A stretch of DNA of 64,000 nucleotides from Clostridia bacterium (GCA_017463445.1 JAFTPF010000011.1:33087-97086); one strand, 5' to 3'; counted from the first letter of the stretch, positions 4,027 through 43,057 are shown. Program-made: numbers and translations. The notes: generated by a model from the letters alone, not told the origin.

Positions 4027-4031
4027 AGTGC

Positions 4032-4127
4032 CCAAGGGCTCTGCCCTTGGATCCCGGCAGGAACCCTTTTAAAAAAGGGTTCCTGCACCTCCTAAAACTT
4101 TCATAAAAGCCGACAAATCCTTGTCGG
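4032..4127. repeat. mosaic hairpin element, inverted orientation (modules P1-P2-linker-P3)
   Basis: Hairpins are CCAAGGGCTCTGCCCTTGG (4032-4050), CAGGAACCCTTTTAAAAAAGGGTTCCTG (4058-4085) and GCCGACAAATCCTTGTCGGC (4108-4127). The linker is CCTCCTAAAACTTTCATAAAA. The same modules recur at six other loci. Confidence 0.8.
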
Positions 4128-4189
4128 CCGGGAAATAACATACTCAAAACTTTTCGCAAAGGAAATATGGTATTCATTATAATTCCTTT

Positions 4190-4265
4190 CCCAAAAGTTC
4201 TTGAAAATTCAAAAACCTACTTACAAGAAGGTTTTTGGCAGGGGTTTGGGGACAGCGTCCCCAAA
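4190..4265. repeat. partial second mosaic copy (linker motif plus two hairpins)
   Basis: CAAAAGTTCTTGAAAA is the linker motif, also seen at 18916-18944 in reverse complement. AAACCTACTTACAAGAAGGTTT and TTTGGGGACAGCGTCCCCAAA (4245-4265) are hairpins. Confidence 0.6.
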
Positions 4266-4286
4266 TACAGAAAGGATTTATTCAAA

Positions 4287-4946
4287 ATGGGTAAACTATT
4301 TGTGATCGACGGGCTGGACGGCTCCGGCAAGGGCACGCAGTCCGCGAAACTCACCGAATATCTCACAAAAAAGGGCATTGATGCCCGTCGGATCAGTTTT
4401 CCTGCTTACGGCACCCGCGGTGCCGCACTGGTGGAAGGATATCTGGGCGGTGAGCTGGGCGGCAGGCCGGACGATACCGGTGCATACGCCACCTCGACCT
4501 TTTATGCCGTAGATCGCTACTGGTCTTACCGCACCCAGTGGGGTGAGTTCTACCACCGTCCCGACAGCGTGGTGGTCTGCGACCGCTACACCACCGCCAA
4601 CGCCGTCCATCAGTGCTCCAAGCTGCCAAAGGAGCAGTGGAACGCTTACCTCGACTGGCTATGGGACAACGAATACAACAAGCTGGGCATTCCCCGCCCC
4701 GACAAGATCTGCTATCTGGAGATGCGTCCCGACCTCTCCCGCCGTCTGGTGGAAGAGCGTTCGGTGAAGGAAGGGCGCAAGATCGACATCCACGAGGGCG
4801 ATTACGAATACCTCTGCCGTTGCTATGAGGCGGCACTCTACGCCAGCGATTATCTGGGCTGGGAGAAGATCACCTGCTACGAGGGTGACACCATCCGCTC
4901 GGTGGATGACATCTTCGCCGAGCTGCTCACGAGGCTGGAGCTGTGA
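4287..4946 (+). CDS. thymidylate kinase family (dTMP kinase-like) protein
   Basis: MGKLFVIDGLDGSGKGTQS is a P-loop at the N-terminus and DRY follows downstream. AAAGGA lies upstream of ATG 4287. The 40-codon extension in track ORF 4167 is encoded by repeat DNA and is rejected. Confidence 0.75.
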   Translation: MGKLFVIDGLDGSGKGTQSAKLTEYLTKKGIDARRISFPAYGTRGAALVEGYLGGELGGRPDDTGAYATSTFYAVDRYWSYRTQWGEFYHRPDSVVVCDRYTTANAVHQCSKLPKEQWNAYLDWLWDNEYNKLGIPRPDKICYLEMRPDLSRRLVEERSVKEGRKIDIHEGDYEYLCRCYEAALYASDYLGWEKITCYEGDTIRSVDDIFAELLTRLEL

Positions 4947-5596
4947 CCATTCGCAGAAGCTGTGCCGCCGATCTGCCCGCTCTGCAAGCACTCTGGCAGG
5001 AGGTCTTCGGCGATCCGCCCGCATTCACGGGTCGGTTTTACGAAACCTTCGGAGCTGACTGCGCTATCGTTGCCGAGGAGGACGGCAGGGTGATCGCAAT
5101 GATCCACCCGCTCCCCGTGGCTTTGGCGCAAAACGGGCAGTGCTCCTTCGGGGTATACATCTACGCCCTCGCTACCGCCCCCAACCATCGGGGACGCGGC
5201 ATTGCCTCCCGATTGCTGGAGGAGGCAGAGACCGCTCCCTTTCCCACTAATCCCACCCTTGCGGGCGCAGATACCGTCGGGCTTACCGCCGTGGAGACGC
5301 AAACCCCCGCATTTTCCCTGCTCATCCCCGCCGAAGAGAGTCTGTTCCAATACTACCGCGCCCGCGGTTACGACCGACCCTCAAGAGTTGTATCGGCAGA
5401 AGCCAACGATTACTCCGCCCATCTGGTGCAAGGACTGGCGAGAGATCCCGTTTTTCTTAAGCCCGAGCCCTTTTATACGCTGTCGGTAAAGATCCCCGAA
5501 CCGATTCCCCCTCCCGTAGAATGCGCGCTGTGGAAAGCCCTCTCCCCTGATCTTGTAGCGGACAGCGAGCCGACCCTCTCCCATTTTATGCAATAA
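4943..5596 (+). CDS. GNAT family N-acetyltransferase
   Basis: The acetyl-CoA binding signature is present: YIYALATAPNHRGRGIASRLL (R-G-x-G-I/A). The GTG start overlaps the preceding stop (GTGA). Confidence 0.7.
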   Translation: MTIRRSCAADLPALQALWQEVFGDPPAFTGRFYETFGADCAIVAEEDGRVIAMIHPLPVALAQNGQCSFGVYIYALATAPNHRGRGIASRLLEEAETAPFPTNPTLAGADTVGLTAVETQTPAFSLLIPAEESLFQYYRARGYDRPSRVVSAEANDYSAHLVQGLARDPVFLKPEPFYTLSVKIPEPIPPPVECALWKALSPDLVADSEPTLSHFMQ

Positions 5597-5614
5597 TCAC
5601 TCAAGGAGTTTTCT

Positions 5615-6157: not shown

Positions 6158-6233
6158 CCATTGAAGAAGTTGCTTTTTGCTCCGCAAAAAGCTCCCGAAT
6201 TTATTCTTTATTCTTTAGTATCCAAGGAGTCCT

Positions 6234-10008: not shown

Positions 10009-10010
10009 CC

Positions 10011-11211: not shown

Positions 11212-12453
11212 ATGAGACTGAAGCTCCTTGCCCTCCTGTTGACCATCGCGACACTGGTTCCTGCCATTGTAGGATGCACCGGCACGACAACTGAGGTAAC
11301 AACGCAAGCCTCCGCCGAAGACACCGCCGCCACTACAAAGGCTCCCGAGGACGAAGAACCAGAGGTGCGCACCACCCAGTTTGCGGAACCTGCGCTTGAA
11401 TTGATCCATACGATCATTGACGATTACTGGATCTCCAGAAGCCAGACCCTTCGCGAAGAGCGGGGCAGCAGTGCGACCGCCTTCGCCTGGAGTTACGCTT
11501 CTTTTCTGGAAGCACTCTCCGAAGCATATCGCCTCTATCCCAACGATTCTAAGGTGGCTCAGACCTACCTGAGCGCATTGGAAGGCATAGAAGCGTATGC
11601 CGTCTCCACCACGATCACCGCACCCTCCGGCAGACACAAGGTTACTTATTATAACGCCAGCAAGGGCGGCAGCGGCGATTATTATTACGATGACGACGCA
11701 TGGATCTGCATCCAGTTTTTGACTGCCTACGAGCTTTTGGGCGACAAACAGTATCTGGAGAGAGCCGAGAAGACGCTGGAATTTCTGTGGACCGGTTGGG
11801 ACGATGTTCTGGGCGGCGGTATCTACTGGGACAAGACCTATGGCAGCAAGAACACCTGCGCCAACGGTCCTATCGCCATCGCATTCCTGTGGGCATATCA
11901 GTTGACCGAAAATACCGATTATCTTGCCAAAGGCGCCGCCATCTACGACTGGACGTACAATACACTGCGGGACGGCAGTCTGTACAACGACAGCATGGGC
12001 AAGGACGGCGGCAAAAACACCTGGAAGGCGGCGTACAACCAGGGCGTTATGATCTACGCCGGCGCACAGATGTATGAGATCACCGGCGATGAAACCTACT
12101 TGAAGCAAGCACGCTCCACTACCAACGCCTCCCTCAGCCTGATGTTCTCCGGCAGCGGCAGCAACACCAAGATGAAGGATAACCCCATCTACAAGGGTTG
12201 GTGCATCGGCTGGCTGACCCGCGGCTATCTGAAATACTATTCGGTAGATTCCAGAAAGAGCACTACTTCCATGAAAATGCTGGAAGCAGTACTGGTCAAT
12301 ACGCTGGAGACCAAAGACCGTAGCGGCTACTACGATCCCTATTTCTGCAACGAGAACGCTTGGTCCTCGGAATCCCGAACCTGCATCCTGCAGCCTGCCG
12401 GCGTCTGCTCCGTGCTATTCTTGGCCGCTTACTACGATTTGATATTGAAATGA
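11212..12453 (+). CDS. glycoside hydrolase family 76 (alpha-1,6-mannanase-like) lipoprotein, paralog 1
   Basis: Lipobox LVPAIVGC and a Thr-rich linker. DYYYDDDAWICIQFL holds the adjacent Asp pair characteristic of GH76. LEFLWTGWDDVLGGGIYWDK is also present. Confidence 0.8.
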   Translation: MRLKLLALLLTIATLVPAIVGCTGTTTEVTTQASAEDTAATTKAPEDEEPEVRTTQFAEPALELIHTIIDDYWISRSQTLREERGSSATAFAWSYASFLEALSEAYRLYPNDSKVAQTYLSALEGIEAYAVSTTITAPSGRHKVTYYNASKGGSGDYYYDDDAWICIQFLTAYELLGDKQYLERAEKTLEFLWTGWDDVLGGGIYWDKTYGSKNTCANGPIAIAFLWAYQLTENTDYLAKGAAIYDWTYNTLRDGSLYNDSMGKDGGKNTWKAAYNQGVMIYAGAQMYEITGDETYLKQARSTTNASLSLMFSGSGSNTKMKDNPIYKGWCIGWLTRGYLKYYSVDSRKSTTSMKMLEAVLVNTLETKDRSGYYDPYFCNENAWSSESRTCILQPAGVCSVLFLAAYYDLILK

Positions 12454-12658: not shown

Positions 12659-13924
12659 ATGAAAAAGAAACTTTTGGCCGCTCTGCTGGCGGTCGCCTCC
12701 CTGCTCCCCCTGGCAACGGCTTGCACCGGTTCCGATGCAGAGGTCACTACTGAAGGAACCACCACCACGACCGAAGCTGTAACGACCACCGTTCCCACCC
12801 CCTCCACCCCCCTCCCTTCCGACCAGTACGAGTCTCAGTTTGCTGAGCCTTCCTACAAGCTGATGCGCCAGATCATCAAGGATTACTGGCGTACCACCAC
12901 GCTCCGCACCGACCTGACCAGCTCCAACGCTGCTGTCGTTTGGGGATTTGCAGGCTTTTTAGAAGCGGTCGCCGAGGCGTACCGTCTCTTCCCCGACGAT
13001 GTGACCATCGAAAGAGCCTACAGAAACGCTCTGACTAAGGGCATCACGCAATACAAGGTCACCAATGCTACCATCACTGCGCCCACCGGCGACTACAAGG
13101 TCTCCTACTACAACGCAGGCAAGGGCGGATCGCGCGACTACTATTACGACGACGACGCTTGGATCTGCATCCAGTTTTTGAACGCCTACGAGCTTCTGCA
13201 AGATGAACAGTTCCTTGCTGAGGCCGAGGAGACGCTGGAATTCCTCTGGACCGGCTGGGACGATGTTCTGGGCGGCGGTATCTACTGGGATAAGTCCTAC
13301 AGCGGTAAGAACACCTGCGCTAACGGTCCTGTTGCCATCGCCTTCTTGTGGGCATATCAGCTGACCCAGAAGGAAGAATATCTGGAAAAAGGCAGAATGA
13401 TCTACGATTGGTGCCGTGAAAAACTGCTGGACGGTGACCTTTACATCGACAGCCTGGGCGTAGACGGCGGCAGAAACAACTGGAAAGCCGCTTACAACCA
13501 GGGTACCATGATCTACGCAGGCGCACAGCTCTACGAGATCACCGGCGACGAGACCTACCTGACGCAGGCGCGTGCCACAAACAAAGCAACGATCAGCCTG
13601 ATGTTCACCGGCAGAGGCTCCTCCACAAGAATGAACGGCAACCCTATTTACAGATCCTGGTGTATCGGCTGGCTGGTCCGTGGCTTTATGAAGTTCTACT
13701 CGGTTGATCCCGAAAAGGATACGACCGCTATGGATAATATGGCAGTGGTCCTCAAGCGCACTCTGAAGACCCAGAACAAGAAGGGCTACTACGATCCCTA
13801 CTTCTGCACCGGCGACTGGGCAAGCGAGTCGACTACCGACGTTCTCCAGCCCTGCGGCGTAGCATCGGTACTTCTGCTGACTACTTATTTCGAAGATTTC
13901 ATGGCAGCTAAAAACGCTGAGTGA
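12659..13924 (+). CDS. glycoside hydrolase family 76 lipoprotein, paralog 2
   Basis: Lipobox LPLATAC and a Thr-rich linker. It is collinear with 11212..12453 and shares identical blocks DYYYDDDAWICIQFL, LEFLWTGWDDVLGGGIYWDK and YEITGDETYL. Confidence 0.8.
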   Translation: MKKKLLAALLAVASLLPLATACTGSDAEVTTEGTTTTTEAVTTTVPTPSTPLPSDQYESQFAEPSYKLMRQIIKDYWRTTTLRTDLTSSNAAVVWGFAGFLEAVAEAYRLFPDDVTIERAYRNALTKGITQYKVTNATITAPTGDYKVSYYNAGKGGSRDYYYDDDAWICIQFLNAYELLQDEQFLAEAEETLEFLWTGWDDVLGGGIYWDKSYSGKNTCANGPVAIAFLWAYQLTQKEEYLEKGRMIYDWCREKLLDGDLYIDSLGVDGGRNNWKAAYNQGTMIYAGAQLYEITGDETYLTQARATNKATISLMFTGRGSSTRMNGNPIYRSWCIGWLVRGFMKFYSVDPEKDTTAMDNMAVVLKRTLKTQNKKGYYDPYFCTGDWASESTTDVLQPCGVASVLLLTTYFEDFMAAKNAE

Positions 13925-13940
13925 GCCCTCCTCTTTTAAA

Positions 13941-14130
13941 AAAGAGTCCGAACATTCGGACTCTCAGACTGAAGACAAAGTCTACCCCTTCCGCTGGCAC
14001 CAGCCAAGGAAAGGGGTAGGAGGTCTGGAGGAAGGGGGAAAACTTCGGCGTTTGAGATGGTTTCCCCCTTCCTCCAGTTCTTGAAACAATTTTGTCTACA
14101 CTTTGAGAGTCCGAACATTCGGACTCTTTT
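13941..14130. mobile_element. MITE-like non-coding element with ~37-bp imperfect terminal inverted repeats
   Basis: The ends are AAAAGAGTCCGAACATTCGGACTCTCAGACTGAAGAC (left) and GTCTACACTTTGAGAGTCCGAACATTCGGACTCTTTT (right, inverted). The interior holds a perfect 17-bp stem, CTGGAGGAAGGGGGAAA...TTTCCCCCTTCCTCCAG. It has no coding capacity. Confidence 0.6.
13991..14065 (-). repeat. dispersed ~70-nt repeat, copy A
   Basis: The minus strand reads GGAAACCATCTCAAACGCCGAAGTTTTCCCCCTTCCTCCAGACCTCCTACCCCTTTCCTTGGCTGGTGCC. It aligns with copies at 19106-19165 and 60649-60724. Confidence 0.75.
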
Positions 14131-14235
14131 ATATTTTTTTCCAAAACCCCAAATCCTTAAAGAAAAATTCACAAATAGGGACTATAATAGAGTTGTTGCA
14201 TCTGTTCTGACCGCAGAAATCTACCGGATGCCGGA

Positions 14236-18856: not shown

Positions 18857-19215
18857 ATCGTGGGGCGCTGCCCCACACTCCGCCAAAGAACCTTCTTGTA
18901 AAAAGGTTCTTTGGAATCTCCAAGAACTTTTGAAAAGCCCCGCAAATACTTGCGGGGCTTGATTTTTTGAAATCTATTCCCTCCAACTTGTAGGGACAGG
19001 CGTCCTCGACTGTCCCGTTTGCAAAGGGATCGCTCTGTGAAAATCCTTAGAAATCCAAGGAAGCAATTTCGCCTGCGTCGAAATTGTAATCTGAGAAGGG
19101 GAGAAGAAACCATCTCAGACGCCGAATGTTTCAGACTCTTTCCCTCATCCACCTTGGCTGGCGTGTCGAGAGACTGATAGTAAGATGATGGGGCTGTAAA
19201 ACAAGTTTTTTCCAA
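18857..19215. repeat. ~360 bp non-coding mosaic of hairpin modules plus dispersed-repeat copy B
   Basis: Hairpins lie at 18860-18876, 18884-18915 (P2), 18945-18970 (P3), ~19003-19030 (GGGACAG...CTGTCCC) and ~19064-19086 (CAATTTCG...CGAAATTG). Repeat copy B lies at 19106-19165. Confidence 0.75.
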
Positions 19216-21050: not shown

Positions 21051-21056
21051 ATATAC

Positions 21057-21251
21057 AAACCGCCTTGCAAATATTTGCAAGGCGGTTTGCTTACAATTCG
21101 AACGCCGACGAGTACTCGTCGGCGTTTTCATAAAGTTTTCGGAGTCCAGAACCCTTTTTCAAAGAAGGGATGGAGTTGCCTCAACGAGGCAACTCCGGCA
21201 ATTCGGCTTTGCCGAATTGCATGGGTGGGGTTCCAAGGGCAGAGCCCTTGG
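21057..21251. repeat. six consecutive hairpin modules filling a convergent intergenic gap
   Basis: Hairpins lie at 21057-21088, 21101-21126 (CGACGAGTACTCGTCG core), ~21152-21169, 21172-21196, 21198-21220 and 21233-21251. The last is the exact reverse complement of 4032-4050. The linker TTCATAAAGTTTTCGGAG lies at 21127. Confidence 0.8.
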
Positions 21252-23486
21252 TCAATTATTCCGATAATAATTCATCAGACAGCCGTCCAGGAGGATCTGG
21301 CGGTCGCCGGCGGGGAGGGCTTCCAGCAGGAAGGTGAAGGGGGCGGCTGCGCCGTCGTGGATGATGTAGGCGGGGACTTCTACGGCATCGGAGGCGAGGA
21401 GCTCGCGGATGTTCGGGATGAAAATGTAGTCGTCTACCGCCACGGGAAGATCACCCTTGTAGGTCAAGGGGAGCATACCCCAGTTGATCAGGTTGGAGCG
21501 GTAACGCTTGGTGGCGTACTCCTGCGCGATGTTGGCAAGACCGCCCAGCACACGCTGACAGGATGCCGCCTGCTCACGGGCAGAGCCGTCACCGGGCTTC
21601 AGCGCGCAGACCACCGAGCCCAGCATGATGGAGTCGGCGGGGGCATTGCTGACGGTGGCAACGGCGGCGTAAACCTCGTCCAGTTCGGCAATGTGCTTGC
21701 CGGCGAGACGGTCGGCCTCGGCGGTGCGGACTGCCTTCGCCTTGCCCACGTATGCGGGATCCTTTCTCGACAGCGCAAAAGAGGACAGCTTCTCGGGATT
21801 AGAACGGTAGGAGGAGGTGTCGCCCGAGGGGATCAGTTCGTCGGTGGTGGTGACGGGGTCGTTGATGATGGTCACCGCTTTCAGAAGCAGATTGTCGGCG
21901 GGAGCGTTCATCTTGGGCCAGTCGGCGATGTTGGGACCGAAGACCAGCTCGGTCTCGGGCTTGGCTTTGCCATAGCCGTTGTAAACGCGATTGTCGTAAA
22001 CGGTCTTGTCAAAGTTGTAGCAGGGAGTGGTGTAGGAAACGTCCAGCTCGGTGGCGGGGGTCAGCACGCCGCCGTTTGCTGCGGTGGCGGCGATGGAGCG
22101 GGAGTCCATGAGGGCAACTGCCGCGATCTGGTTGTCGCCGGGCTTGGAGCCTTCGCGGTTGGGGAAGTTACGGGTGGAGTGCCGGATGGACAGACCGCCG
22201 TTGGCGGGAACGTCGCCTGCGCCGAAGCAGGGACCGCAGAACGCCGAGCGGAGGGTCGCGCCTGCAGAGATCAGATCTGCCGCGGCTCCCGCACGGATCA
22301 GCTCCAGCATCACGGGCTGAGAAGCGGGGTAAACAGACAGCGAGAATCTGCCCGCGCCGGTGGATGCGCCGCGAAGAATGTCGGCGGCGGCGATGAGGTT
22401 ATCGAAGGTACCGCCCGCACAGCCTGCGATGACACCCTGATCTACGTAGAACTTGCCGTCCACGAACTTGGACTGCAGGTTCAGCCGTCCCTCGGGGATG
22501 CCCAGCTGATTCACCGCGTCTGCCTCGCACTTTGCCAGCAGCTCAGGAGCGTTTTTCAAAAATTCCTTGATGGTGTATGCGTTGGAGGGGTGGAAGGGGA
22601 GCGCAATCATGGGCTCTACCTTGTCGAGATCGATTTCCACCATGCCGTCGTAGTAGGCGGGGGAGGTGGGGGAGAGCTTCTTGTAGTCTGCCGCTCTGCC
22701 GTGGAGGGCGAGGTACGCCTCGGTCGCCTCGTCGGTCTCCCAGATGGAGGAGAGACAGGTGGTCTCGGTGGTCATCACGTCGATGCCGTTACGGAACTCC
22801 ATAGGCAGGTTATGTACGCCCTCGCCGATGAACTCCAGCACCTTATTCTTCACAAAGCCGGATGCGAAGACCGCACCGATCAGCGCGATGGCAACGTCCT
22901 GGGGTCCCACGCCGATCCGGGGCTTGCCGCTCAGCTTGACCGCGATGACGTCGGGGTAAGCGATGTCGTAGGTTCTGCCCAGCAGTTGCTTTACCAGCTC
23001 GGGACCGCCCTCGCCGATCGCCATAGTGCCGATGGCACCGTAGCGGGTGTGGGAGTCGGAGCCCAGCAGCATCTTGCCGCAGCCTGCGAAGGATTCGCGC
23101 ATATAAGAGTGGATGACCGCCTGATGGGGAGGCACAAAGATGCCGCCGTACTTCTCCGCAGCGGAAAGACCAAACATATGGTCATCCTCGTTGATGGTTC
23201 CGCCAACGGCACAGAGGGAGTTGTGACAGTTGGTCAGGACGTAGGGGAGGGGAAATTCCTTCAGACCCGACGCGCGGGCAGTCTGGATGATACCAACGTA
23301 GGTGATATCGTGGGACGCCATTGCGTCGAATTTGATCTTCAGTCTGTCGTCATTTCCCGAGGTGTTGTGGGAAGTGAGGATAGAGTACGCCATAGTGTTC
23401 TTCTTGGCGTCGGATGCGGATAAATTGGACTTGTCCGAAATGGTGCCGTTTTCGTAGAAAACGCCGTTCTTGGTGAGTTTGATCAT
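21252..23486 (-). CDS. aconitase-family hydratase (aconitate hydratase)
   Basis: 744 aa. The Fe-S ligand contexts LLGSDSHT and FCGPCFG are present, and a swivel-domain C-terminus. Confidence 0.85.
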
Positions 23487-24394: not shown

Positions 24395-24614
24395 ATGCAT
24401 TTGGGGCTCTGTCCCCCGCTAAACTTTCTTGAAAAAAAGTTTGGATCAGAAGATCCCCTGCCCGACGAATACTCGTCGGGCAGGGGATCTTCTTTGATAT
24501 TCTTTTATAAATTGCACATACTGATAATAATCACAATCTGCCGGGCAAGTATTTGCCCGGCTTCATAAAAGTTTTAGAAGGGGTTTGGGGGAACCTTTTT
24601 CAAAAGGTTCCCCC
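24395..24614. repeat. mosaic hairpin element (P4-P3-linker-P2)
   Basis: A perfect 21-bp stem with a 4-nt loop lies at 24448-24493. GCCGGGCAAGTATTTGCCCGGC lies at 24540-24561. The linker TTCATAAAAGTTTTAGAAGG follows. GGGGGAACCTTTTTCAAAAGGTTCCCCC lies at 24587-24614. Confidence 0.85.
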
Positions 24615-24624
24615 AAGAAACATT

Positions 24625-25525: not shown

Positions 25526-27637
25526 TTACTGCTTTTTCTTCTTGATCACAACTACCGCGATCACGGCGATAACCACCACAGCGGCAGCTACGCCAATCAC
25601 GATAGGCAGCACGGAGCCGTCCTCTTCTGCAGAGTCGTCGGTGGTACCGGTATCGTTATCGGATGCACCGTTGGTTACGGTGGGTGCCTTGGTGGTTACG
25701 GGAGCCTTAGTGGTAGTGGTCGCGGGCTCATCGGTCACCACGGGATCGGTGGGATCCTCGGTTGCAGGAGGATCCACAGGATCGGTGGGATCGGTGGGAT
25801 CCTCGGTTGCAGGGGGATCTACAGGATCGGTAGGATCGGTAGGATCCTCGGTTGCTGGGGGATCTACAGGATCGGTGGGCTGACCGTCATAGTTATAGAG
25901 CTCCAGCTCTGCAGCAGATACAGCTCCGCCGCCCCAGTTTGCACAGTTTACTTCCCAACGGTAGTAGGTGTATGCTGCAGGCTCGTCAACCTCGTACATA
26001 GCGGTGCCGTTATTCACACAGCCCATACCACCCATACCGCGGTCAACGTCGTCGATGATAGTATAGGTCTTGCCGTCGTTGGAGCCCAGCAGAGTCCAGG
26101 ATGCGGGAACACGGCAGTAATCGAAGCTGTCTTCCCATGCAGTGGTGATCGCATAGTTGGTAATAGTGGTAGGCTCGGTGGTCTGCCAGGTTACGAAAGC
26201 GGTGATGCCGTTGCCGCCCATCTTGGTATCTTTCTTGCCGTCGAACAGATTGGTAACAGCGCCGTCGGGCCACATACCCTTGTTGACTGCGATGGTAGCT
26301 TGGTCGATCTTGTCGGTCAGGAGAGTGCCGTCAGCTGCGATGGTAGCCGCAACATCGGGAGCCAGCATATCGGTGTCGGTGGGAACAGTGGTCTTGAATG
26401 CGAGAACCTGTTCAATGGCCTTTGCGGTAGCACCGGTGAAATCCTCGGTAGCGGAATACTTGACCACAGGCTTTACAGCGTCGCCGCCGTCACGCTCCAT
26501 GTAGGCAGCGGTGATGGTGTAGGTCTTGCCTGCTTCCAGCTTGATGGAAGAGGTGTACCAGGTCTCGGATGCATTGTTGTAGGTGCGCTCTGCCCACAGC
26601 TCGTATACGCGGGTATCGTCGATCTGGATCATCAGACCGTTGTCAACCTTGGTGGTACCAAACAGGTAGTAACCGGTCTCGGCAACGGTGAAGGTACCTT
26701 CGTACAGGTTGATGTAGGATTCGTCTGCGGGAGCAGGAGTCCAGGGAGTGATGGTGGGAGTCACAACAGTACCGCCGATCTGCTGAGAAGTAGCCAGCAG
26801 ACCTTCGATGGTCTCGTCGTAGTAAGCGGTATTATCGCCGCACTGAGAGTTGTCGCCGCCCTCAAGATCGTCGCCTGCAGCCGCAAATACCTTTACGTAA
26901 GGATGGTTAGTGTTGCCGGGATCGCCCCAACGGTCGGCCTTGTTGTGGTAGCAGTCTACGGACAGATCAAAGGTCAGACCCAGTTCTGCCAGAGATTTGA
27001 ACTCGGTAGAGTCACCCACGTAGCCGCCGATTTCCAGAGCGTCACCGCCGGTGAGCTCCAGGAACCAGATGTTCACGTCATAGGACTCGCCTGCTTTTAC
27101 AGTGATCGAACCCAGATCGCTGGCAAGATCGGCAGCCTCGGCTTTCAGCCAGTGAGAGGAGCCCCACCATTCGTAGTAACGGGTGTCGTCCATTTCGAAC
27201 ACAAAGCCGTTATCGATCTTGTTGGCAACCAGAGTGAAGGTCAAGTCCCTGGAAGCGGTCATAGTACCGGTCCAGTTCAACATATAGTTATTACCGTTGG
27301 GAGCGCCCAGAGTGCCGGTTACCAAGCTGTCGCCGTCCAGCTGGAAGGTAGTGGTCTTCACCGCTTCTTCATTAGTCTTGCGGGACCAGTACATCAGCTC
27401 GTCGATAGTCTGGTCGAAACGGTGCATATTTCTGTAATCGGCCATTTCGCCGTCACCGTCATTGCCGAAGATCTTTTTATAAGCGTCGTCCCAAGCTGCG
27501 GTATTGGCCACCAACTGGTATGAGGTCTGGGACAGACCGTCAACAGTAGTAGCGGTTTCTGCTGCGTTGACTGAAAAGGCGGAAGCCATAGACAGCATCG
27601 TAGCAGTTGCAAGAATTGTTGCAAGTGTCTTTTTCAT
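25526..27637 (-). CDS. secreted multi-domain surface protein: PA14-like repeats, F5/8 type C (CBM32-like) domain, Pro/Thr/Asp repeats and a C-terminal TM anchor
   Basis: Signal peptide MKKTLATILATATMLSMASAFSVNA. The DNGF/LxxxxDDTRxYExW blocks are PA14-like (inference). The discoidin-like segment is NLFDGKKDTKMGG...WTLLGSNDGKTYT...YYRWEV...AAELELY. PTDPTDPVDPPATED occurs three times. The tail is VIGVAAAVVVIAVIAVVVIKKKKQ. Confidence 0.75.
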   Translation of the reverse strand: MKKTLATILATATMLSMASAFSVNAAETATTVDGLSQTSYQLVANTAAWDDAYKKIFGNDGDGEMADYRNMHRFDQTIDELMYWSRKTNEEAVKTTTFQLDGDSLVTGTLGAPNGNNYMLNWTGTMTASRDLTFTLVANKIDNGFVFEMDDTRYYEWWGSSHWLKAEAADLASDLGSITVKAGESYDVNIWFLELTGGDALEIGGYVGDSTEFKSLAELGLTFDLSVDCYHNKADRWGDPGNTNHPYVKVFAAAGDDLEGGDNSQCGDNTAYYDETIEGLLATSQQIGGTVVTPTITPWTPAPADESYINLYEGTFTVAETGYYLFGTTKVDNGLMIQIDDTRVYELWAERTYNNASETWYTSSIKLEAGKTYTITAAYMERDGGDAVKPVVKYSATEDFTGATAKAIEQVLAFKTTVPTDTDMLAPDVAATIAADGTLLTDKIDQATIAVNKGMWPDGAVTNLFDGKKDTKMGGNGITAFVTWQTTEPTTITNYAITTAWEDSFDYCRVPASWTLLGSNDGKTYTIIDDVDRGMGGMGCVNNGTAMYEVDEPAAYTYYRWEVNCANWGGGAVSAAELELYNYDGQPTDPVDPPATEDPTDPTDPVDPPATEDPTDPTDPVDPPATEDPTDPVVTDEPATTTTKAPVTTKAPTVTNGASDNDTGTTDDSAEEDGSVLPIVIGVAAAVVVIAVIAVVVIKKKKQ
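25743..25879. repeat. in-frame 45-nt tandem repeat (about 3 copies) encoding PTDPTDPVDPPATED
   Basis: Direct reading of GGATCGGTGGGATCCTCGGTTGCAGGAGGATCCACAGGATCGGTG-like units. Confidence 0.8.
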
Positions 27638-27722: not shown

Positions 27723-27852
27723 TATTCTCTCGCTGAGACGCTTCCGTTATCATGCGTTTCTATGTTTTGCCCAAAAAGAAGACGTCTCTTTTGGCAATTC
27801 TACCGAACTATTTGAATAAGGCGCGTTCTCTGCTGTGTCTCGGATATAATGA

Positions 27853-28841: not shown

Positions 28842-28896
28842 AGGATTAACCTCCATAGATTAGATTGCACGGAGCAAAATTCCCCTGTTTACAATT

Positions 28897-28925
28897 ATTC
28901 TATCTTATGTTCACAAAAAAGTCAA
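28897..28925 (-). promoter_or_regulatory. sigma-A type promoter of the 307-aa surface protein gene
   Basis: The minus strand reads TTGACT, 17 nt, TAGAAT. The -35 context TTGACTTTTTTGTGAAC is shared with 31003-31031. Confidence 0.55.
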
Positions 28926-29025
28926 TATTTTTGCGCAACTTTTTCCCGTCAATTTAAATTTTCTACGTTTTCACCAAACCACTCACTCTGTTTTTGACAA
29001 AACGAACAAACATTTTTCTACAATC

Positions 29026-30947: not shown

Positions 30948-31002
30948 AATATCCTCCTGATATTTTGACAAAGTCGCTGCGAGACTCTGCCGATTCATAA
31001 TT

Positions 31003-31031
31003 ATTGTACACCACGTTCACAAAAAAGTCAA
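31003..31031 (-). promoter_or_regulatory. sigma-A type promoter of the 628-aa surface protein gene
   Basis: The minus strand reads TTGACT, 17 nt, TACAAT. Confidence 0.55.
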
Positions 31032-31163
31032 GAATTATTTGCACCAAAAGGAAATTGCACAAACAAATTCTCTGTTTTTAACAAAAGCGAAAATGAGTTT
31101 TTAGGCAGGATGACGAACACAGTCACCCCGACGTCCAACAGGGTCGGGGTGACTTGGGAATGC

Positions 31164-34699: not shown

Positions 34700-34729
34700 A
34701 AACGGCAGGGCAAAAGCCCTGCCGTTTTT
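34700..34729. terminator. bidirectional rho-independent terminator
   Basis: AAACGGCAGGGCAAAAGCCCTGCCGTTTTT lies between convergent genes. Confidence 0.75.
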
Positions 34730-34768
34730 CGATATGGTATAATTTTCCTAAACTACGAGAAGCATTCC

Positions 34769-37045: not shown

Positions 37046-37051
37046 TAATCG

Positions 37052-37227
37052 GCTCCGCCGACTTAAAACCCCTTCATGTAAGAAGGGGTTTTAAGAATCT
37101 ACCAAAAGCTTTATGAAAGCGCCGCAAATACTTGTGGCGCTTCGTTCTTCTCCCGCTCGACGAGTATTCGTCGGGCTTTTTCAAAAGTTTTTGGGGTCTT
37201 AGGGGGGCTTTTTTCAAAAAGCCCCCT
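37052..37227. repeat. mosaic hairpin element (terminator hairpin, P3, P4, linker, P2-variant)
   Basis: Hairpins lie at 37052-37085, 37117-37140 (CGCCGCAAATACTTGTGGCG), ~37152-37176 (CGACGAGTATTCGTCG) and 37201-37227 (AGGGGGGCTTTTTTCAAAAAGCCCCCT). The linker is CAAAAGTTTTTGGGG. Confidence 0.8.
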
Positions 37228-37235
37228 AATTTAAC

Positions 37236-39635
37236 TTATGCCGCCTCCACCTTCGTGACCAGTACGGTGATGTCATCGCCCCTTCCCTTTTCGGCGATGG
37301 TTCGGGAGTGAATGGCTCCTGCGATTTCCTGCACGCTCTTTCCTGAGAGCGAAGCGAACACCTCGGGCAGCCAGAGCGCTTCTTCTAAGGTTCCCGCCAC
37401 GCCGTCCGACACCTGCAGGATCACGTCGCCCTCCTGCAGAACCATGTTCACCTGCTGGGCGTTGATCTCTCGGGTAAGTCCCAGCGGCATACTGTGAACG
37501 TCGATCTTATAGATGTTTCCTTGCCGCAAGACATAGGAGGGGCAGGCACCGCATTTGACGAAGGCGGCGCCGCCGGTGTAGAGATCCACTTCCAAGAGAT
37601 CCACAGTGCAATGGCATTCCTCAGCACGCCCGCGAATGAAGTTAGAGAGGAGCTTCAGCGTCACCGATTTGTGATTGCCTCCCGAAAGGAGCTTTTCCAG
37701 AAAGAGTGCAGACACCCCCGCCGCGGAAGCGGCGGCTCTGCCGCTTCCCATTCCGTCGCAGACCAGGGCGTAGCCCTGCCCTGCTTCCGACGTAAACGAC
37801 CGCGCCGTGTCTCCGCTGACCGGCTCGTGCTCCTTGACGCTGCAGGCGCGCGCCGTAGTGAGTCTAAAGCGTTGGCGGCTTTCAAACTGCATAGACACGC
37901 TCTCGCCCACGAATTTGAACGACGGTTCGGTGAGCGCAAGTCCAGTCTTCTCCTCCAGCTTATGCCGAAGAGCCCGTCCGCCGCCGGGGATGGTGGATAG
38001 CGTCACTCCCGAGGCAATCAGCAGTTTTTTGCGCGTTCCCCATGCGCCGCATCCCACCGTCTGGATCCCTTCTCCGCGGATCACGGTCGCAAAGGTCTTC
38101 CGAAGCTCCTCGTCGGGTGTCAGACTGCCGTCATCCACCGCCGACTCGCGGAGCAGCTCGGCAAGTGCCTGATAGTCCAGCGCAAACAGCTCAGAGCGAT
38201 CCCGCAGAACTACATTCTCCACGTGCTCCGCCACTCGCACGCCGATCTCGGCAAGGATCTCGTCGATCTTACGGCATCGCTCGGTAAAATAGGGTGGTAA
38301 AGCGTTCCGCCGAGGCATTCCGCATCGCGGGATTTCCTCCGCCAGCTTGCAGAGCGCGTCTCGGGTAGACTCATACTCATCCTGCCAGCACCGCTCGCTT
38401 CGCACGCACTTTTTGCAATAGCGGCGAAAGACGCCCTCGCACAGCTCAAGCATCTCCCCTGTTTCGGGACGGGCCAGATCCTGCGAAAACTTCAGCAACA
38501 TCTTGGATAGATCGTCAAAGGAGGCAGAGAGCCGCCGAAGTCTGACCGCATCAGCCGCCCGTCGATCAGCCTCACAAGTGGGTTCTTCCGTCTCGGCGGC
38601 GGGAAACAGCGAGAGCTTTCCCAAAAGCCCCGACCGCGCAAGAGGAAGAAAGAGGAGGACGCCAAATAACAGGTTTCCCAGCACCGGCAGTGCGCCCCAG
38701 ATGCCGTCCTGCCACACGGATAGCCCGCCTGTCACCGCGAAAAAGCAAAAGACCGCGCTTCCTGCGCCAAACATCCGCAAAGAACCCGCCACCAGTCCGC
38801 CTGCCGCCAGCAAGAGCGGAGACGTTCCGCAGGCCACCCCGCAGATAAGACCCACCAATCCGCCCCGAAGTAATCCGCCCTTCAGCGCCGATTGCATCGT
38901 GGCAAGGCAAGCAGCGATCAGAGCTGGAGAAAGACCGAAGAGGCTGTGTCCCGCCAGCGCGTAAATGCCGCAAAAGAGCAGAACACAGGCACCCACTTCC
39001 CGGAGCGAGATCGGTTTATCTTTTTGCAGACCCAGCCAAAACAGTGCTGTGAGTAGCGGTGCCGCAGCCAGTCCGAAGAGCAGCGCCATCACGCCCCGAA
39101 AGTGAAATTCGTAGACCACCACATTATACACGCCCGCCAAAAAGGCGGCAAAGACCGCCACCGCCGCTCGCAGATGCAGCGGCTCTCCGAACAGCGGAAG
39201 AGGCTCATCCTCCTCGCCCGCTACCCGCGCTGAGAAAAGAAGCCGCGCGCCCAGCACCATCCCCAGGATCACAGCCTGTGCAAGTCCGCCCTGACCGCTG
39301 GCCAGCGCGCCTGCCACCGCCCCCGCAAAGACCGCCACCGCACCACTTCTTCCCGATGCTAACAGCATCGCAATCCCGAACGGGCGCGATGAGAACAGCG
39401 CAGTCGTTCCCTGAAAAATAAATCCCGTCACGCACCAGAGTGCCGTGATCCCTGCCCGTCGCCTCAGTCTGGCGGCATCCTCCTCATCCAGCAGCTCGGC
39501 AGGTCTGCCCATCAGCGCCCCTACCGTTTTGTCAGCTTTTTGCTGTAATGTTTCCAATTTTTCCTTTGCTTTTGCACGAAGATCCATTTTTCTGCTCCTT
39601 CCTTTTGGCAAATGCTTGTCCGCTTTCGTTTTCAT
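37236..39635 (-). CDS. spoIIE: stage II sporulation protein E (PP2C phosphatase with polytopic N-terminal domain)
   Basis: About 10 TM segments, a central regulatory region and a C-terminal PP2C domain (VCDGMGSGRAA...DDITVLV). The start is uncertain, with an alternative ATG 17 codons downstream. Confidence 0.85.
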   Translation of the reverse strand: MKTKADKHLPKGRSRKMDLRAKAKEKLETLQQKADKTVGALMGRPAELLDEEDAARLRRRAGITALWCVTGFIFQGTTALFSSRPFGIAMLLASGRSGAVAVFAGAVAGALASGQGGLAQAVILGMVLGARLLFSARVAGEEDEPLPLFGEPLHLRAAVAVFAAFLAGVYNVVVYEFHFRGVMALLFGLAAAPLLTALFWLGLQKDKPISLREVGACVLLFCGIYALAGHSLFGLSPALIAACLATMQSALKGGLLRGGLVGLICGVACGTSPLLLAAGGLVAGSLRMFGAGSAVFCFFAVTGGLSVWQDGIWGALPVLGNLLFGVLLFLPLARSGLLGKLSLFPAAETEEPTCEADRRAADAVRLRRLSASFDDLSKMLLKFSQDLARPETGEMLELCEGVFRRYCKKCVRSERCWQDEYESTRDALCKLAEEIPRCGMPRRNALPPYFTERCRKIDEILAEIGVRVAEHVENVVLRDRSELFALDYQALAELLRESAVDDGSLTPDEELRKTFATVIRGEGIQTVGCGAWGTRKKLLIASGVTLSTIPGGGRALRHKLEEKTGLALTEPSFKFVGESVSMQFESRQRFRLTTARACSVKEHEPVSGDTARSFTSEAGQGYALVCDGMGSGRAAASAAGVSALFLEKLLSGGNHKSVTLKLLSNFIRGRAEECHCTVDLLEVDLYTGGAAFVKCGACPSYVLRQGNIYKIDVHSMPLGLTREINAQQVNMVLQEGDVILQVSDGVAGTLEEALWLPEVFASLSGKSVQEIAGAIHSRTIAEKGRGDDITVLVTKVEAA

Positions 39636-39846
39636 CCTTTATTATAGGCATACACGGTGCAAAACCAAGTCGAAGGACGCAGTCGAATGAATACTATTTT
39701 TGTTGCGACAGATCAGTTTTCACGAATACAGGTCGCCAAAAGACGATTGAAGACGCAATTTGCGAGCGTTTTCAAAAAAAAGGATCGCCCCACATCCGTG
39801 TGTGCACACAGATATGGAGCGGTCCCGCGGACGGATGCCCGAGTGC

Positions 39847-40086: not shown

Positions 40087-40118
40087 GTGAATTCTCCTTT
40101 GAATAATGTAGTACTATT

Positions 40119-40147
40119 ATTGTACCGAATAAATAAAAAAAAGTCAA
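40119..40147 (-). promoter_or_regulatory. sigma-A type promoter of the 79-aa gene
   Basis: The minus strand reads TTGACT, 17 nt, TACAAT. Confidence 0.5.
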
Positions 40148-40165
40148 TATATTTTCATAAAAAAC

Positions 40166-40194
40166 TTGCAAAATTCGACCGAATGTATTATAAT
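40166..40194 (+). promoter_or_regulatory. sigma-A type promoter of the SGNH hydrolase gene
   Basis: TTGCAA, 17 nt, TATAAT. Confidence 0.5.
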
Positions 40195-40226
40195 ATTTTC
40201 AAATCTGAGCAAAGGAACCGTAAACT

Positions 40227-40886: not shown

Positions 40887-40904
40887 GCTGTAACTGAATA
40901 ACCG

Positions 40905-40946
40905 CACCGCCCCACCTGCATATACTGCAGGTAGGGCGGTCTTTTT
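40905..40946 (+). terminator. rho-independent terminator
   Basis: ACCGCCCCACCTGCA...TGCAGGTAGGGCGGT stem followed by CTTTTTT. Confidence 0.7.
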
Positions 40947-40998
40947 TGCGCCCAATCACCCGGCGCTCGTTGCCTGACGAGCGCAGAATGGAGTTATT

Positions 40999-42849
40999 AT
41001 GTGCTCAATTGCCGCAATCTACCGCCCGCTGCCCAAACAAGGCGGCCTGCTCTCCGCCGCTTGCGACGATGCCACCGCCATCGCCCAAATGAACCGCTCA
41101 CTGGCTCATCGGGGTCCCGATGACAGCGGGATCTTTCAAGACGAGACGGTCTGCCTCGCTCACAACCGTCTGTCTGTAATGGATCCCTCCCGAGGCAAGC
41201 AACCGATGTCTGCCGTCTATTTCGGTAGACAATATACGATCATATACAACGGTGAAATCTACAACACCGATGAATTAAAGCGCGAACTCACCGCGCGCGG
41301 TGCGATATTTACAACAGAATGCGATACCGAGGCAGTACTTTGGTCTTATATCCTCTACGGCAAAGACTGTCCCGCACGGCTCAACGGCATTTTTGCCTTT
41401 CTGATTTACGATCACACCGAGCGGACGCTGTTTGCCGCCCGAGATCGGTTGGGAGTAAAGCCGTTGTATTACGCCCGCACCAAGGACGAATGGTATTTTG
41501 CCTCCGAGCCTAAAGCATTGCTGGCTCACCCGAGGGTCCGTCCCACGGTGAATCGGGAAGGTCTATGGGAGCTGTTGTTTCTATCGCCGGTCACCACAGA
41601 GAAATCGGCTATTTTCCGCAACATCCATCAACTGCACGCAGGCGAATGGATGTTGCTGTCGCCTGATGGGAGCGAGGCGGTAAAATACTGGGAATTGAAT
41701 GCTTCCGTCTGCACAGACAGTCTGTCAGAGGCGGTAGCGCACACCCGTTGGCTACTGGACGATGCCGTCCGCCGCCAGCTTCGCAGTGATGTTCCGCTTT
41801 GCACTTTTCTGTCGGGAGGACTTGACTCGTCGGTATTGACGGCGATTGCCGCCCGATCACTGGCAAAAGAGGGGAAGCAACTCTCCACTTACTCCTTCGA
41901 ATACGAAGGAAATCGGGAAAACTTTCAAGCAAGTCTGTTCCAGCCCCAAGGCGATGATCTCTACGCACGCCGTCTGGCGAAGGATCTGGGAACCGATCAC
42001 ACCGTTCTGACCATCCCCACCAAGACCGTTGCCGATCTGCTGGACGAAGCGGCGATCTATCGGGATCTGCCCGGGCAGGCGGACATCGATTCCTCGCTGC
42101 TCTGGTACTGCCGGCAGGTGAAAAAGCGTCATACCGTGGCTATTTCGGGAGAGTGCTCTGACGAGATCTTCGGCGGATACCCCTGGTTTTACAGACCCGA
42201 GATGCTTTCACGCGACTTTTTCCCGTGGCTTCACGATCCCTACGCCCGCATAAAGCTGTTCCGAGCAGATATTGTACGTCCTGCCGAAGGATTCGCGCAC
42301 CTGTCGAAGCATTACCAAGACTTTCTCGCCGCCTGCCCCACCTTGGAAGGAGAATCCGATGCAGACCGCCGCGCTCGCATTGCCACCTGTCTTTCAGTGC
42401 GCTACTTTATGCAAAATCTCCTTGCCCGCAAGGACCGAATGAGTATGGCAACCGCGCTGGAGGTGCGCGTCCCCTTTGCGGATCATCGCATCCTCGAATA
42501 CCTTTATAATCTTCCGTGGCAATATAAATTCCGTGATGGTGTAGAAAAGTCCTTGCTTCGGGATGCGGCGGCAGGACTTTTGCCTGATTATATCCTTCAT
42601 CGTAAGAAATCGCCATATCCTAAGACTCACAATCCCGCCTACGAACATCATATCCACGCAAGACTCACAGAAAAGCTGAAGGAAGATTCGCTCTTCACCG
42701 CGCTTCTGGACTGTTCAGCGGTAGAAGCGTTTATTAACGGGGAAAATACCACTTGGTTCGGTCAGCTGATGGCGCGTCCGCAGATGATCGCCTGGCTCCT
42801 ACAGCTATCGGCGTGGCTGGAGCATTATCCGGTAGAGCTGTCGTTATAA
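40999..42849 (+). CDS. asnB: asparagine synthase (glutamine-hydrolysing)
   Basis: MC at the N-terminus gives the Ntn Cys nucleophile. The PP-loop is FLSGGLDSS. The protein is 616 aa. Confidence 0.88.
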   Translation: MCSIAAIYRPLPKQGGLLSAACDDATAIAQMNRSLAHRGPDDSGIFQDETVCLAHNRLSVMDPSRGKQPMSAVYFGRQYTIIYNGEIYNTDELKRELTARGAIFTTECDTEAVLWSYILYGKDCPARLNGIFAFLIYDHTERTLFAARDRLGVKPLYYARTKDEWYFASEPKALLAHPRVRPTVNREGLWELLFLSPVTTEKSAIFRNIHQLHAGEWMLLSPDGSEAVKYWELNASVCTDSLSEAVAHTRWLLDDAVRRQLRSDVPLCTFLSGGLDSSVLTAIAARSLAKEGKQLSTYSFEYEGNRENFQASLFQPQGDDLYARRLAKDLGTDHTVLTIPTKTVADLLDEAAIYRDLPGQADIDSSLLWYCRQVKKRHTVAISGECSDEIFGGYPWFYRPEMLSRDFFPWLHDPYARIKLFRADIVRPAEGFAHLSKHYQDFLAACPTLEGESDADRRARIATCLSVRYFMQNLLARKDRMSMATALEVRVPFADHRILEYLYNLPWQYKFRDGVEKSLLRDAAAGLLPDYILHRKKSPYPKTHNPAYEHHIHARLTEKLKEDSLFTALLDCSAVEAFINGENTTWFGQLMARPQMIAWLLQLSAWLEHYPVELSL

Positions 42850-42858
42850 ATAAAAGTA

Positions 42859-43053
42859 GGGGAACTTTTTGAAAAAAGTTCCCGAGAGTTCGCCCATATG
42901 GGCGAACTCTGAACCCCTTCAAAAACTTCCTGATAGCGCGGCAAATACTTGCCCACGCCATTATTTTCTTGTCTCGCAAGCATTTGCGAAACATTTATAA
43001 AAGTTTTTGGAGGGAGTCAAAAGGGGAACCTTCTTTCAAGAAGGTTCCCCCTT
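42859..43053. repeat. back-to-back pair of mosaic elements sharing a central P3 hairpin
   Basis: The order is P2 (42859-42883), hairpin AGAGTTCGCCCATATGGGCGAACTCT (42885-42910), inverted linker, P3-like (42936-42958), forward linker TTTATAAAAGTTTTTGGAGG, then P2 (43021-43053). Confidence 0.8.
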
Positions 43054-43057
43054 AAAA

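Follow-up and report, generated by a model that had tools for sequence, protein, structure and literature searches.

Intergenic gaps in a 64,000-nucleotide stretch of DNA from a Clostridia bacterium (GCA_017463445.1 JAFTPF010000011.1:33087-97086; hereafter the window) contain dense clusters of hairpins assembled from a small set of recurrent modules. We lean, with modest confidence, towards reading them as a new family of modular palindromic repeats, comparable to repetitive extragenic palindromic (REP) sequences, bacterial interspersed mosaic elements (BIMEs) and REPINs on the one hand and to the BOX and SPRITE repeats on the other, that accreted around terminators and of which some copies would lend a ribosome-binding GGAGG to the adjacent gene. 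The family is distinguished by being common to several phyla, by its candidate ribosome-binding motifs, and by being built, in this Clostridial lineage, around predicted bidirectional terminators.

The basic unit is a conserved linear motif, the linker (AAAGTTYTTGGAGG, or TTCATAAAAGTTTTTGGAGG), followed by a hairpin, P2, whose apex (CTTTTTCAAAAG) is conserved and whose outer stem varies freely. The foot of P2 is GGAGG(T), preceded by AAAGTTTT (alignment A1). The full module sequence runs from a GC hairpin, P3 or P4, through the linker and P2 to, optionally, at least one small GC hairpin with a 3-nt loop (P1). Perfect hairpins with a stem of at least 7 bp, catalogued exhaustively, cluster densely at 4032-4265, 18860-19016, 21056-21272, 24421-24616, 37062-37226 and 42860-43050; the other gaps of the window mostly hold one simple hairpin. 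Compared with shuffled-sequence controls, the modules are in excess: P1 (CCAAGGGC-NNN-GCCCTTGG) is found exactly at 4032-4050 and 21233-21251 (0 expected), the P3 centre CAAATACTTG ten times (four exact matches and six with one mismatch; 2.7 expected), the P4 centre CGACGARTAYTCGTCG three times (0.02 expected), and the linker consensus three times at up to three mismatches (0 expected). A covariance model of linker plus P2 (R1), a check that the original prediction of these mosaics had called for, was scored over the whole window with filters off. It matches nine full-length oriented units (E-values, which are rough, of 1e-14 to 1e-3), all of them intergenic and confined to six gaps, and gives no convincing unit over 43-64 kb of the window. 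All of the modules lie where the original prediction had placed them, far above chance; its count of at least nine linkers agrees with the nine R1 units, and its order P3-(P4)-linker-P2-(P1) holds in both orientations. It had listed seven gaps, and the number is six, because 42859-42958 and 42936-43053 belong to a single gap, as its two halves. At three of the six, the flanking genes are convergent. Including ~17 kb beyond the ends of the window, 12-13 units are found in ~81 kb of genome, roughly 1 per 6-7 kb, a density that would extrapolate to a few hundred units per genome. In a crude map of all collected units based on open reading frames (ORFs), the P2 side faces a gene end in 85 units, at a median of 11 nt from the stop codon, and a gene start in 53.

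The family is not Clostridia-specific; the same linker, P2 and small GC hairpins are found elsewhere. The pattern AAAGTTTTNGRRG-N(3-20)-GGAACC-N(6-12)-GGTTCC, scanned against one genome per species, matches at least 114 loci, versus ~2 chance matches expected from its information content. Carriers among the matches listed include many metagenome-assembled genomes (MAGs) of Clostridia (Oscillospiraceae, Lachnospiraceae, Christensenellaceae), Desulfovibrionaceae, including the isolates Desulfovibrio caledoniensis and Pseudodesulfovibrio karagichevae, several Aminicenantes/Acidobacteriota MAGs, and MAGs labelled Omnitrophota, Deferrimicrobium, Nitrospinota and Thermoguttaceae; several of the genomes listed are represented by many loci. 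The phyla are given as labelled in the sequence records. The likeness extends beyond the letters imposed by the pattern, to the apex TTTTTCAAAA, complementary outer stems, an inverted partner (CCTCCAAAAACTTT) and P1-like GC hairpins. A tail, CCGCCGGAGGCA, also belongs to this likeness and is present as well in L121, a close relative of the window organism, and a subfamily with the stem TCCAGG...CCTGG is found in MAGs labelled as different phyla, although these labels are uncertain. The repeat family is present in at least three phyla; three can be taken as secure. Tandem arrays of P1 or of whole units are found in L067, L089, L094 and L101. A blastn search of the repeats against phage and plasmid collections gave only one weak 44-nt match, to a C. 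difficile plasmid, and the pattern scan of IMG/VR a single match; the family is therefore not phage-borne.

Two individual loci merit mention. In L089 (60-270), from a Clostridia MAG of roe-deer colon, the P1 hairpin GCGGGATCCAAGGGGCAGAGCCCTTG is repeated ~7 times in tandem between P2 and the ribosome-binding site of the next gene. In L020 (382-427), one well-formed unit is found upstream of pyrB, on a contig that is labelled Methanocella, encodes a class-I HMG-CoA reductase and is plausibly archaeal. Chance, a binning error and a real archaeal copy are all conceivable origins of this unit; because one unit is within chance expectation, we do not count it as archaeal evidence.

Units are arranged head to head. 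Over all collected sequence, 37 neighbouring pairs are head to head (P2'-linker' ... linker-P2'), and 29 of these 37 have a separation of at most 263 nt, the other arrangements being scattered. The original prediction had regarded the linker as unpaired; because the units lie head to head, the two linkers of a doublet instead form, in the predicted folds, a long stem that is flanked by P2' and P2 and encloses P3/P4. Folding of three composites against shuffles gives z = -11.1, -11.0 and -9.5. In general terms, the linkers of two head-to-head units would pair around a variable central palindrome. Such variation is seen in nine near-identical composites of one MAG, in which no two copies have the same 6-24-nt centre between their inverted linkers, and this centre is often itself palindromic.

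The six mosaics of the window illustrate this architecture. Between FtsK and tmk, a P1 hairpin (CCAAGGGC tct GCCCTTGG; 4032-4050) begins 6 nt past the FtsK stop codon and is followed by a reverse unit on the minus strand (4044-4107; P2' 4057-4086, linker' 4087-4107; R1 67.6 bits, E 1e-14) and a P3-type central GC hairpin (GCCGACAA atcc TTGTCGGC; 4109-4128) recovered by the hairpin list and as a pattern match. A second linker'/linker stem with a forward unit then occupies 4143-4251 on the plus strand; in the fold, 4143-4155 pairs with 4190-4204 around a hairpin at 4158-4190, and the forward unit itself spans 4188-4251 (plus strand; P2 4210-4237; R1 E 3e-4). The mosaic closes with a P1-like GC hairpin (TTTGGGGAC agc GTCCCCAAA; 4245-4265) 22 nt 5' of the tmk start (ATG 4288). 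The second mosaic opens with a P1-like GC hairpin (18860-18876) immediately past a methyltransferase stop codon, and continues with a reverse unit (18871-18936, minus strand; P2' 18883-18914 plus linker'; R1 52.4 bits, E 6e-11) and a P3 hairpin followed by GATTTTTTG (18935-18960, plus strand), terminator-like in both the hairpin list and the terminator scan.

In the third gap, two central GC hairpins on the plus strand (21056-21126), P3 (21056-21089) and P4 (21101-21126), are recognized by sequence and by the P4 pattern. The forward unit that follows (21126-21184, plus strand; R1 E 9e-4) has a degenerate P2 (21146-21171), which is intact in its orthologues in L117 and L118. The remainder (21172-21251) comprises two extra small GC hairpins (21172-21196 and 21198-21220), which are absent in relatives, and a P1 (21233-21251) that abuts the aconitase stop codon. 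The fourth mosaic (24395-24616) separates two plus-strand genes, ThuA (ending at 24394) and YitT (ATG 24625), a gene context corrected by Pfam assignment. It consists of a decayed reverse half (24401-24493) with a P1-like hairpin, which is weak, and a P2-like one at 24421-24442 (P2-only R1 match, E 0.6); a terminator-like P4 with a 21-bp stem (24448-24493; terminator scan) past the ThuA stop codon; and, on the plus strand, a P3 (24540-24561) with an R1-matched forward unit (24562-24628; linker 24562-24584, P2 24585-24616), the two together spanning 24540-24628.

The fifth mosaic begins past the PRPP synthetase stop codon with a small GC hairpin (37049-37061) and a minus-strand reverse unit (37051-37118; P2' 37062-37095, then linker'), together 37049-37118. 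The plus-strand centre (37117-37176) is formed by P3 (37117-37142) and P4 (37155-37176), both terminator-like in the pattern and terminator scans, and the plus-strand forward unit (37178-37242; R1 E 1e-10), whose P2 is of the GGGGGC type (37203-37226), abuts the SpoIIE stop codon. In the sixth, the minus-strand reverse unit (42844-42935; R1 E 3e-6) contains P2' (42860-42883), an extra, nested hairpin seen in the fold (42885-42910) and linker'; sequence and fold place P3 (42936-42958) and a second central hairpin (~42972-42992) at the centre (42936-42992); and the plus-strand forward unit (42994-43064; linker and P2 43023-43050; R1 E 2e-13) lies 7 nt from the SerS stop codon.

The P3/P4 part of the mosaic looks like an ordinary intrinsic terminator. 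The terminator scan matches P3/P4 at 18935, 24448, 37117 and 37155, where the GC hairpin directly precedes a T tract; the T-rich start of the linker follows P3/P4, and the A-rich linker' lies on the opposite side. Since A/T-rich linkers flank it in this manner, the central palindrome is likely to be a bidirectional intrinsic terminator in this genome. P3 and P4 had been proposed as separate modules; we treat them as one type, because they interconvert by compensatory change between orthologous sites and both resemble intrinsic terminators. In the SpoIIE|PRPP-synthetase gap, for example, CGACGAATACTCGTCG in the window corresponds to CGACAAATACTTGTCG in L117, a compensatory G:C to A:T change. 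The start of the composites within ~10 nt of stop codons makes it probable that they are co-transcribed as 3' ends.

It could be argued that each hairpin is simply an ordinary, independently evolving intrinsic terminator, and that the likeness among them is the usual terminator look. The terminator-scan matches of P3/P4, the convergent arrangement of genes at three of the six gaps, and the single A-tract/hairpin/T-tract found in close relatives at one site (see below) would all agree with this. However, both between copies and between phyla, a ~14-nt linear motif and the P2 apex are conserved, most P2 and P1 hairpins are without a T tract, units also occur directly before start codons and in tandem arrays, and R1 E-values reach 1e-14. 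These observations contradict the explanation for the linker, P2 and P1, and we regard it as very improbable. The original prediction had reasoned that plain terminators need no conserved linker, and the linker is indeed left unexplained by them.

A different terminator in the window appears to have been disturbed. The hairpin AGAGTCCGA-acat-TCGGACTCT is present twice in 13925-14135, at 13943-13964 and 14106-14127, 163 nt apart, and the ~140 nt between the copies hold long hairpins, such as GGAGGAAGGGGGAAAAC...GTTTCCCCCTTCCTCC at ~14027-14077. The arrangement has the look of a terminator that an insertion duplicated or split; the R1 match is weak (E 0.6).

The family reading, in which repeats accreted around terminators, is supported by the relatives of the window organism, whose neighbourhoods were gathered via SerS homologues and their contigs. 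The SerS|AsnB gap holds a 208-nt composite in the window and in L125 (SerS identity 100%), and a homologous 282-nt composite of the same architecture, the extra hairpin between linker and P2 included, in L124 (93%). In L117, L118, L121 and L123 (95-97%) the gap is 36-48 nt long and contains one A-tract/hairpin/T-tract, without an R1 match. The lone hairpin of L121 (CCTCGCAAGCAATTGCGAGG) is homologous to the second central hairpin of the window (~42972-42992), and those of L117, L118 and L123 (AACCTTC...GAAGGTT) resemble P2. The simplest reading is that the composite was repeatedly reduced to a single terminator at this site. P2 is palindromic, and two P2 copies are therefore also direct repeats, which would favour deletion between them. 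Because four close relatives keep only one simple terminator here, P2, the linker and P1 are dispensable and turning over; whichever the direction of change, the terminator is always kept. P2, linker and P1 would accordingly be add-ons that are gained, lost, swapped, nested and tandemly amplified around a terminator that persists.

Other sites tell of similar turnover. In the SpoIIE|PRPP-synthetase gap of relatives the right-hand P2 is replaced, L123 is without the left half, and L118 has ~110 nt extra at the centre. One orthologous site in L033 and L078 (90% identical) carries units of opposite orientation and different P2 subtype. At L033 5419-5483, the last codons and TAG stop of the upstream ORF lie inside the linker AAAGCTTTAGGAGG, and the L078 orthologue (on the reverse strand of that locus) ends differently, with a reverse unit after it; repeats can therefore rewrite protein C-termini. 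Between orthologous sites the units are 96-100% identical and the flanks 82-95%, and orthologous pairs among the pattern-match loci contain no element-sized indels.

Composites can also coincide with larger rearrangements. Genes for a 2-hydroxyacid dehydrogenase and aconitase are convergent neighbours around one composite in relatives (L117 19388-20950, L118 19520-19755) and lie ~13 kb apart in the window (21056-21251 vs 34700-34768). In the window, the right half of the composite stays beside aconitase and the dehydrogenase has only a simple terminator; the rearrangement breakpoint therefore lay inside the composite. A breakpoint at this position would fit the idea that the units are sites in double-stranded DNA that a host protein binds or processes, for example gyrase, a nucleoid protein or IHF (as at BIMEs), or else a recombinase, and are kept for chromosome organisation; the units are palindromic, their A/T-tract apex would bend DNA, and their position is conserved at some orthologous sites. 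Freely varying outer stems are unexpected for a sequence-specific duplex site, however, the spacer between inverted linkers ranges from 6 to >100 nt, the modules are dispensable in relatives, and no candidate protein is known. We consider such a role highly doubtful.

The conserved GGAGG at the foot of P2 has the sequence of a Shine-Dalgarno motif and faces outward. P2 is followed at a distance of 6-19 nt by the ATG or GTG of an ORF at least 150 aa long in 20 of 186 units; on the linker side the figure is 6 of 186. In what we term class I, the GGAGG abuts the P2 foot and there is no other Shine-Dalgarno sequence; examples are yitT in the window, whose ATG is 8 nt after the P2 of the 24562-24628 unit, and L085, L034, L060, L043, L095 and L003. 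In class II (Desulfovibrionaceae, Aminicenantes), the CCGCCGGAGGCA tail puts a second GGAGG 5-9 nt before the start codon. A unit lies directly upstream of hslO (HSP33) in L127 (19785-19873; the same genome, ~6.8 kb past the end of the window), L060 (3062-3124) and L085 (2166-2228); that of L127 has the class I arrangement and a ~35-nt insert nested in the P2 apex, and no other Shine-Dalgarno sequence is present between its P2 and the ATG. The class I hairpin would bring the GGAGG to ~9-13 nt of the start codon, and a hairpin that brings a Shine-Dalgarno sequence near its start codon is known from gene 38 of phage T4. In a subset of copies, then, the outward-facing GGAGG is the only candidate Shine-Dalgarno sequence available to the next gene, and it probably sometimes serves as such. 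Outward ribosome-binding sites would make landing before a gene little harmful, and base-pairing to the universal anti-Shine-Dalgarno sequence would go some way to explaining the occurrence of the same motif in different phyla.

The same observations could indicate that the unit is a structured RNA element with a function of its own, whether as an untranslated-region module that binds ribosomes via GGAGG, in mRNA protection or regulation, or as a processing or stability signal, so that selection, not mobility, would explain the cross-phylum conservation. Ribosomes would be expected to bind a GGAGG with an A/U-rich leader; the enrichment of start codons 6-19 nt after P2, the class I sites without another Shine-Dalgarno sequence, the conservation of the unit before hslO in three loci and the greater conservation of units than of their flanks all agree with this proposal. 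So does the excess of G.T over A.C mismatches in the stems, read on the unit strand (29 vs 12), in an alignment that was fitted by an RNA model and is biased that way. Nevertheless, units occur in both orientations relative to flanking genes, their modules are dispensable in four close relatives, they undergo tandem amplification and nesting, and their subfamily consensus sequences are genome-specific. Nor do they match an Rfam family: with Rfam 15, the window gives only tRNAs at the gathering score, 18 loci give nothing overlapping the elements, and all matches in E-value mode are far below thresholds. We judge a dedicated RNA function to be unlikely.

Stem covariation bears on the same question. 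The P2 helix is 91% paired over 78 units, versus 72% when shuffled and at most 67% after sliding; both partners vary in 13 of its 18 pairs, and each of the four Watson-Crick pair types is found at the outer columns. The stem that L075 carries at one orthologous site is CCAGGGAACC...GGTTCCCTGG, and that of L037 is ~20 bp longer, with both flanks conserved. This suggests that some stem changes are too concerted for stepwise compensation, and whole-stem replacement of this kind looks mutational, not selective. Hairpin formation in DNA with template switching may maintain the palindromy, at least in part, and because it would also give covariation, P2 covariation alone does not show RNA function.

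How the repeats are copied can be approached from their boundaries and neighbours. No consistent target-site duplication is found across nine near-identical, sharp-ended copies of one genome; one possible 9-bp repeat flanks the reverse unit at the L033/L078 site (TGATAATCA and TGATAATTA). Inverted unit pairs 0.7-2.9 kb apart enclose only housekeeping genes, and no transposase, in the ~1 Mb sampled, and all-against-all clustering of ORFs near elements gives no recurrent neighbour family. It is improbable, then, that the composites are classical MITEs (miniature transposable elements with inverted repeats) moved in trans by the DDE transposase that is encoded by a parent insertion sequence whose terminal inverted repeats match theirs. 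Composites do have the appearance of MITEs, being 130-280 nt long, non-coding and provided with inverted repeats (linker plus P2); highly homogeneous copies in some genomes suggest recent bursts, and the possible 9-bp repeat around one reverse unit is of the expected kind. Membership fails because target-site duplications are absent, and in addition a composite can combine halves of different P2 subtypes, units often stand alone, and neither the DNA between inverted pairs nor the neighbouring genes supply a transposase or a recurring protein family.

REP and REPIN systems are copied by single-copy Y1-HUH transposases (PMC3116915, PMC6006769). The lack of target-site duplications, the hairpin dependence and the excess of doublets are properties of REP/REPIN systems, and we infer that a hairpin-specific, single-strand copying mechanism is most likely for the present family as well. 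Units would spread by such a mechanism without target-site duplication, for instance through an enzyme resembling the REP-associated tyrosine transposases (RAYTs).

Several points weigh against the family reading. One protein shares 71% identity between a locus labelled 'Omnitrophota' and one from Acidobacteriota, and some MAG phylum labels may accordingly be wrong. The conservation of units over flanks at orthologous sites fits purifying selection as well as gene conversion or homogenisation. No clean insertion with a defined empty site is seen; the polymorphisms are all readable as deletions or replacements. A scan for a RAYT-like HuH...YxxxNP motif, a crude regular-expression test over the window and ~1.08 Mb of loci, matched only a 551-aa ORF that we judged spurious, which is weak evidence because RAYTs are usually single-copy and easily missed in a sample. 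The terminator and ribosome-binding activities of the repeats are predicted from sequence. Finally, REP and REPIN sequences are described as lineage-specific in PMC3116915 and in a related preprint (bioRxiv 10.1101/2021.07.10.451892), and near-identical sequence across phyla is atypical of them.

A broader proposal, which we offer tentatively and consider rather doubtful as a whole, is that a single superfamily of modular hairpin repeats exists in distant anaerobes (Clostridia, Desulfovibrionaceae, Aminicenantes/Acidobacteriota and perhaps more). It would have spread horizontally, been copied within genomes by some enzyme, and persisted as a nearly harmless, portable gene-boundary cassette with outward Shine-Dalgarno sequences at both ends and central terminators; it would be the first REPIN-like replicator known to cross phyla. 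Small palindromic repeats such as REP, REPIN and BOX are viewed as lineage-specific, and in most families it is unsettled how they are copied and whether the host gains or loses by them. Because the core is found across at least three phyla, and among them in Desulfovibrio and Pseudodesulfovibrio isolates that can be cultured, the enzyme, the horizontal spread and the host function are open to comparative and laboratory tests. In practical terms, repeats at the gene boundaries of uncultured gut Clostridia will yield spurious small ORFs and broken assemblies and will mark rearrangement breakpoints. They probably shape transcript 3' ends and in some cases probably supply the ribosome-binding site of a neighbour.

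The window and the collected loci contain other features of note. A ~50-nt conserved sequence at 28888-28937, 30994-31043 and 40110-40159, with a weaker copy at 178-227, includes, on the minus strand, what resembles a strong promoter (TTGACT-17-TACAAT or TAGAAT), and a second conserved block of 32 nt lies nearby (27760-27791, 28986-29017, 31070-31101). Both blocks recur upstream of several minus-strand genes, suggesting a shared promoter or leader. A 45-nt repeat is present three times in tandem (89-96% identical) at 25742-25876 within a long ORF, where it probably encodes a repetitive linker of a large secreted protein. Tandem paralogous genes for GH76 glycoside hydrolases occupy 11212-12453 and 12659-13924, with two 300-nt blocks of 81% and 75% DNA identity. 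Outside the window, L015 (6778-6822), on a Desulfovibrionaceae chromosome, contains an Acido-Lenti-1 RNA (RF01687; 51 bits versus a gathering score of 37) that is unrelated to the repeats.

A number of other identities were considered for the modules and set aside. The spacing is unfit for a sigma-70 promoter in P2 or the linker and is off by one for a sigma-54 -24/-12 element in P3. CodY, IHF or recombinase core sites have an unfit consensus or would require a less variable spacer, and the GGA loop of CsrA sites is not conserved in Clostridial P1. A small ORF would have no start codon, and integron attC sites have different motifs, the flanking genes here being housekeeping genes.

The original prediction knew of no formal description of such mosaics for Clostridia. 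None is found in Rfam 15, in the REP catalogue of Quentin et al. (supplement table, PMC6006769), which contains no GGAACC-type REP, or in the full-text literature that we searched with the sequences and for descriptions of REPs or MITEs from Faecalibacterium, Clostridia and Desulfovibrio; literature outside that searched may differ. The likeness to REP/BIME that it had proposed stands for the architecture and falls for the sequence. As in the REP/BIMEs of E. coli and other enterobacteria, the repeats are extragenic, numerous, imperfect palindromes (nine units per 64 kb, all intergenic) that alternate in orientation, carry conserved extra-palindromic motifs in a fixed order, are located after stop codons and between convergent genes, and are without target-site duplications. 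Unlike REP, they have no GTAG-type tetranucleotide at the P2 foot (alignment A1) and no sequence similarity, the linear motif being AAAGTTYTTGGAGG; they carry GGAGG motifs, each palindrome folds on itself with linkers pairing between units, no RAYT was found in the crude motif scan of ~1.08 Mb, and the family spans phyla, in contrast to the lineage-specific REP.

REPINs (Bertels and Rainey 2011, PMC3116915) are similar in their over-represented inverted doublets with a short variable spacer, which are predicted to form one long hairpin, and in being non-autonomous and persisting at orthologous sites. They differ in that the halves of a doublet here can be of different P2 subtypes and the centre can grow into terminator-like GC hairpins, and in that the family occurs in several phyla: units are kept at orthologous sites, yet one subfamily spans MAGs with differing, though uncertain, phylum labels. 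Intrinsic bidirectional terminators share with P3/P4, and not with most P2 and P1, a GC hairpin that is A-rich upstream and T-rich downstream, and relatives keep one such terminator at a site; they are without the conserved linker, P2 apex, P1, fixed order, tandem arrays and positions in 5' untranslated regions that are seen in the repeats. The closest Firmicutes precedent is the pneumococcal set of BOX (boxA, boxB, boxC), RUP and SPRITE (Croucher et al. 2011, PMC3049150; reviewed in PMC10969869), here compared by description. That set is almost confined to S. pneumoniae and S. mitis, unlike the present family, but it likewise consists of small modular repeats, one of them terminator-like (SPRITE), that cluster and nest in intergenic DNA, turn over slowly and are co-transcribed with their neighbours (PMC3049150, PMC10969869).

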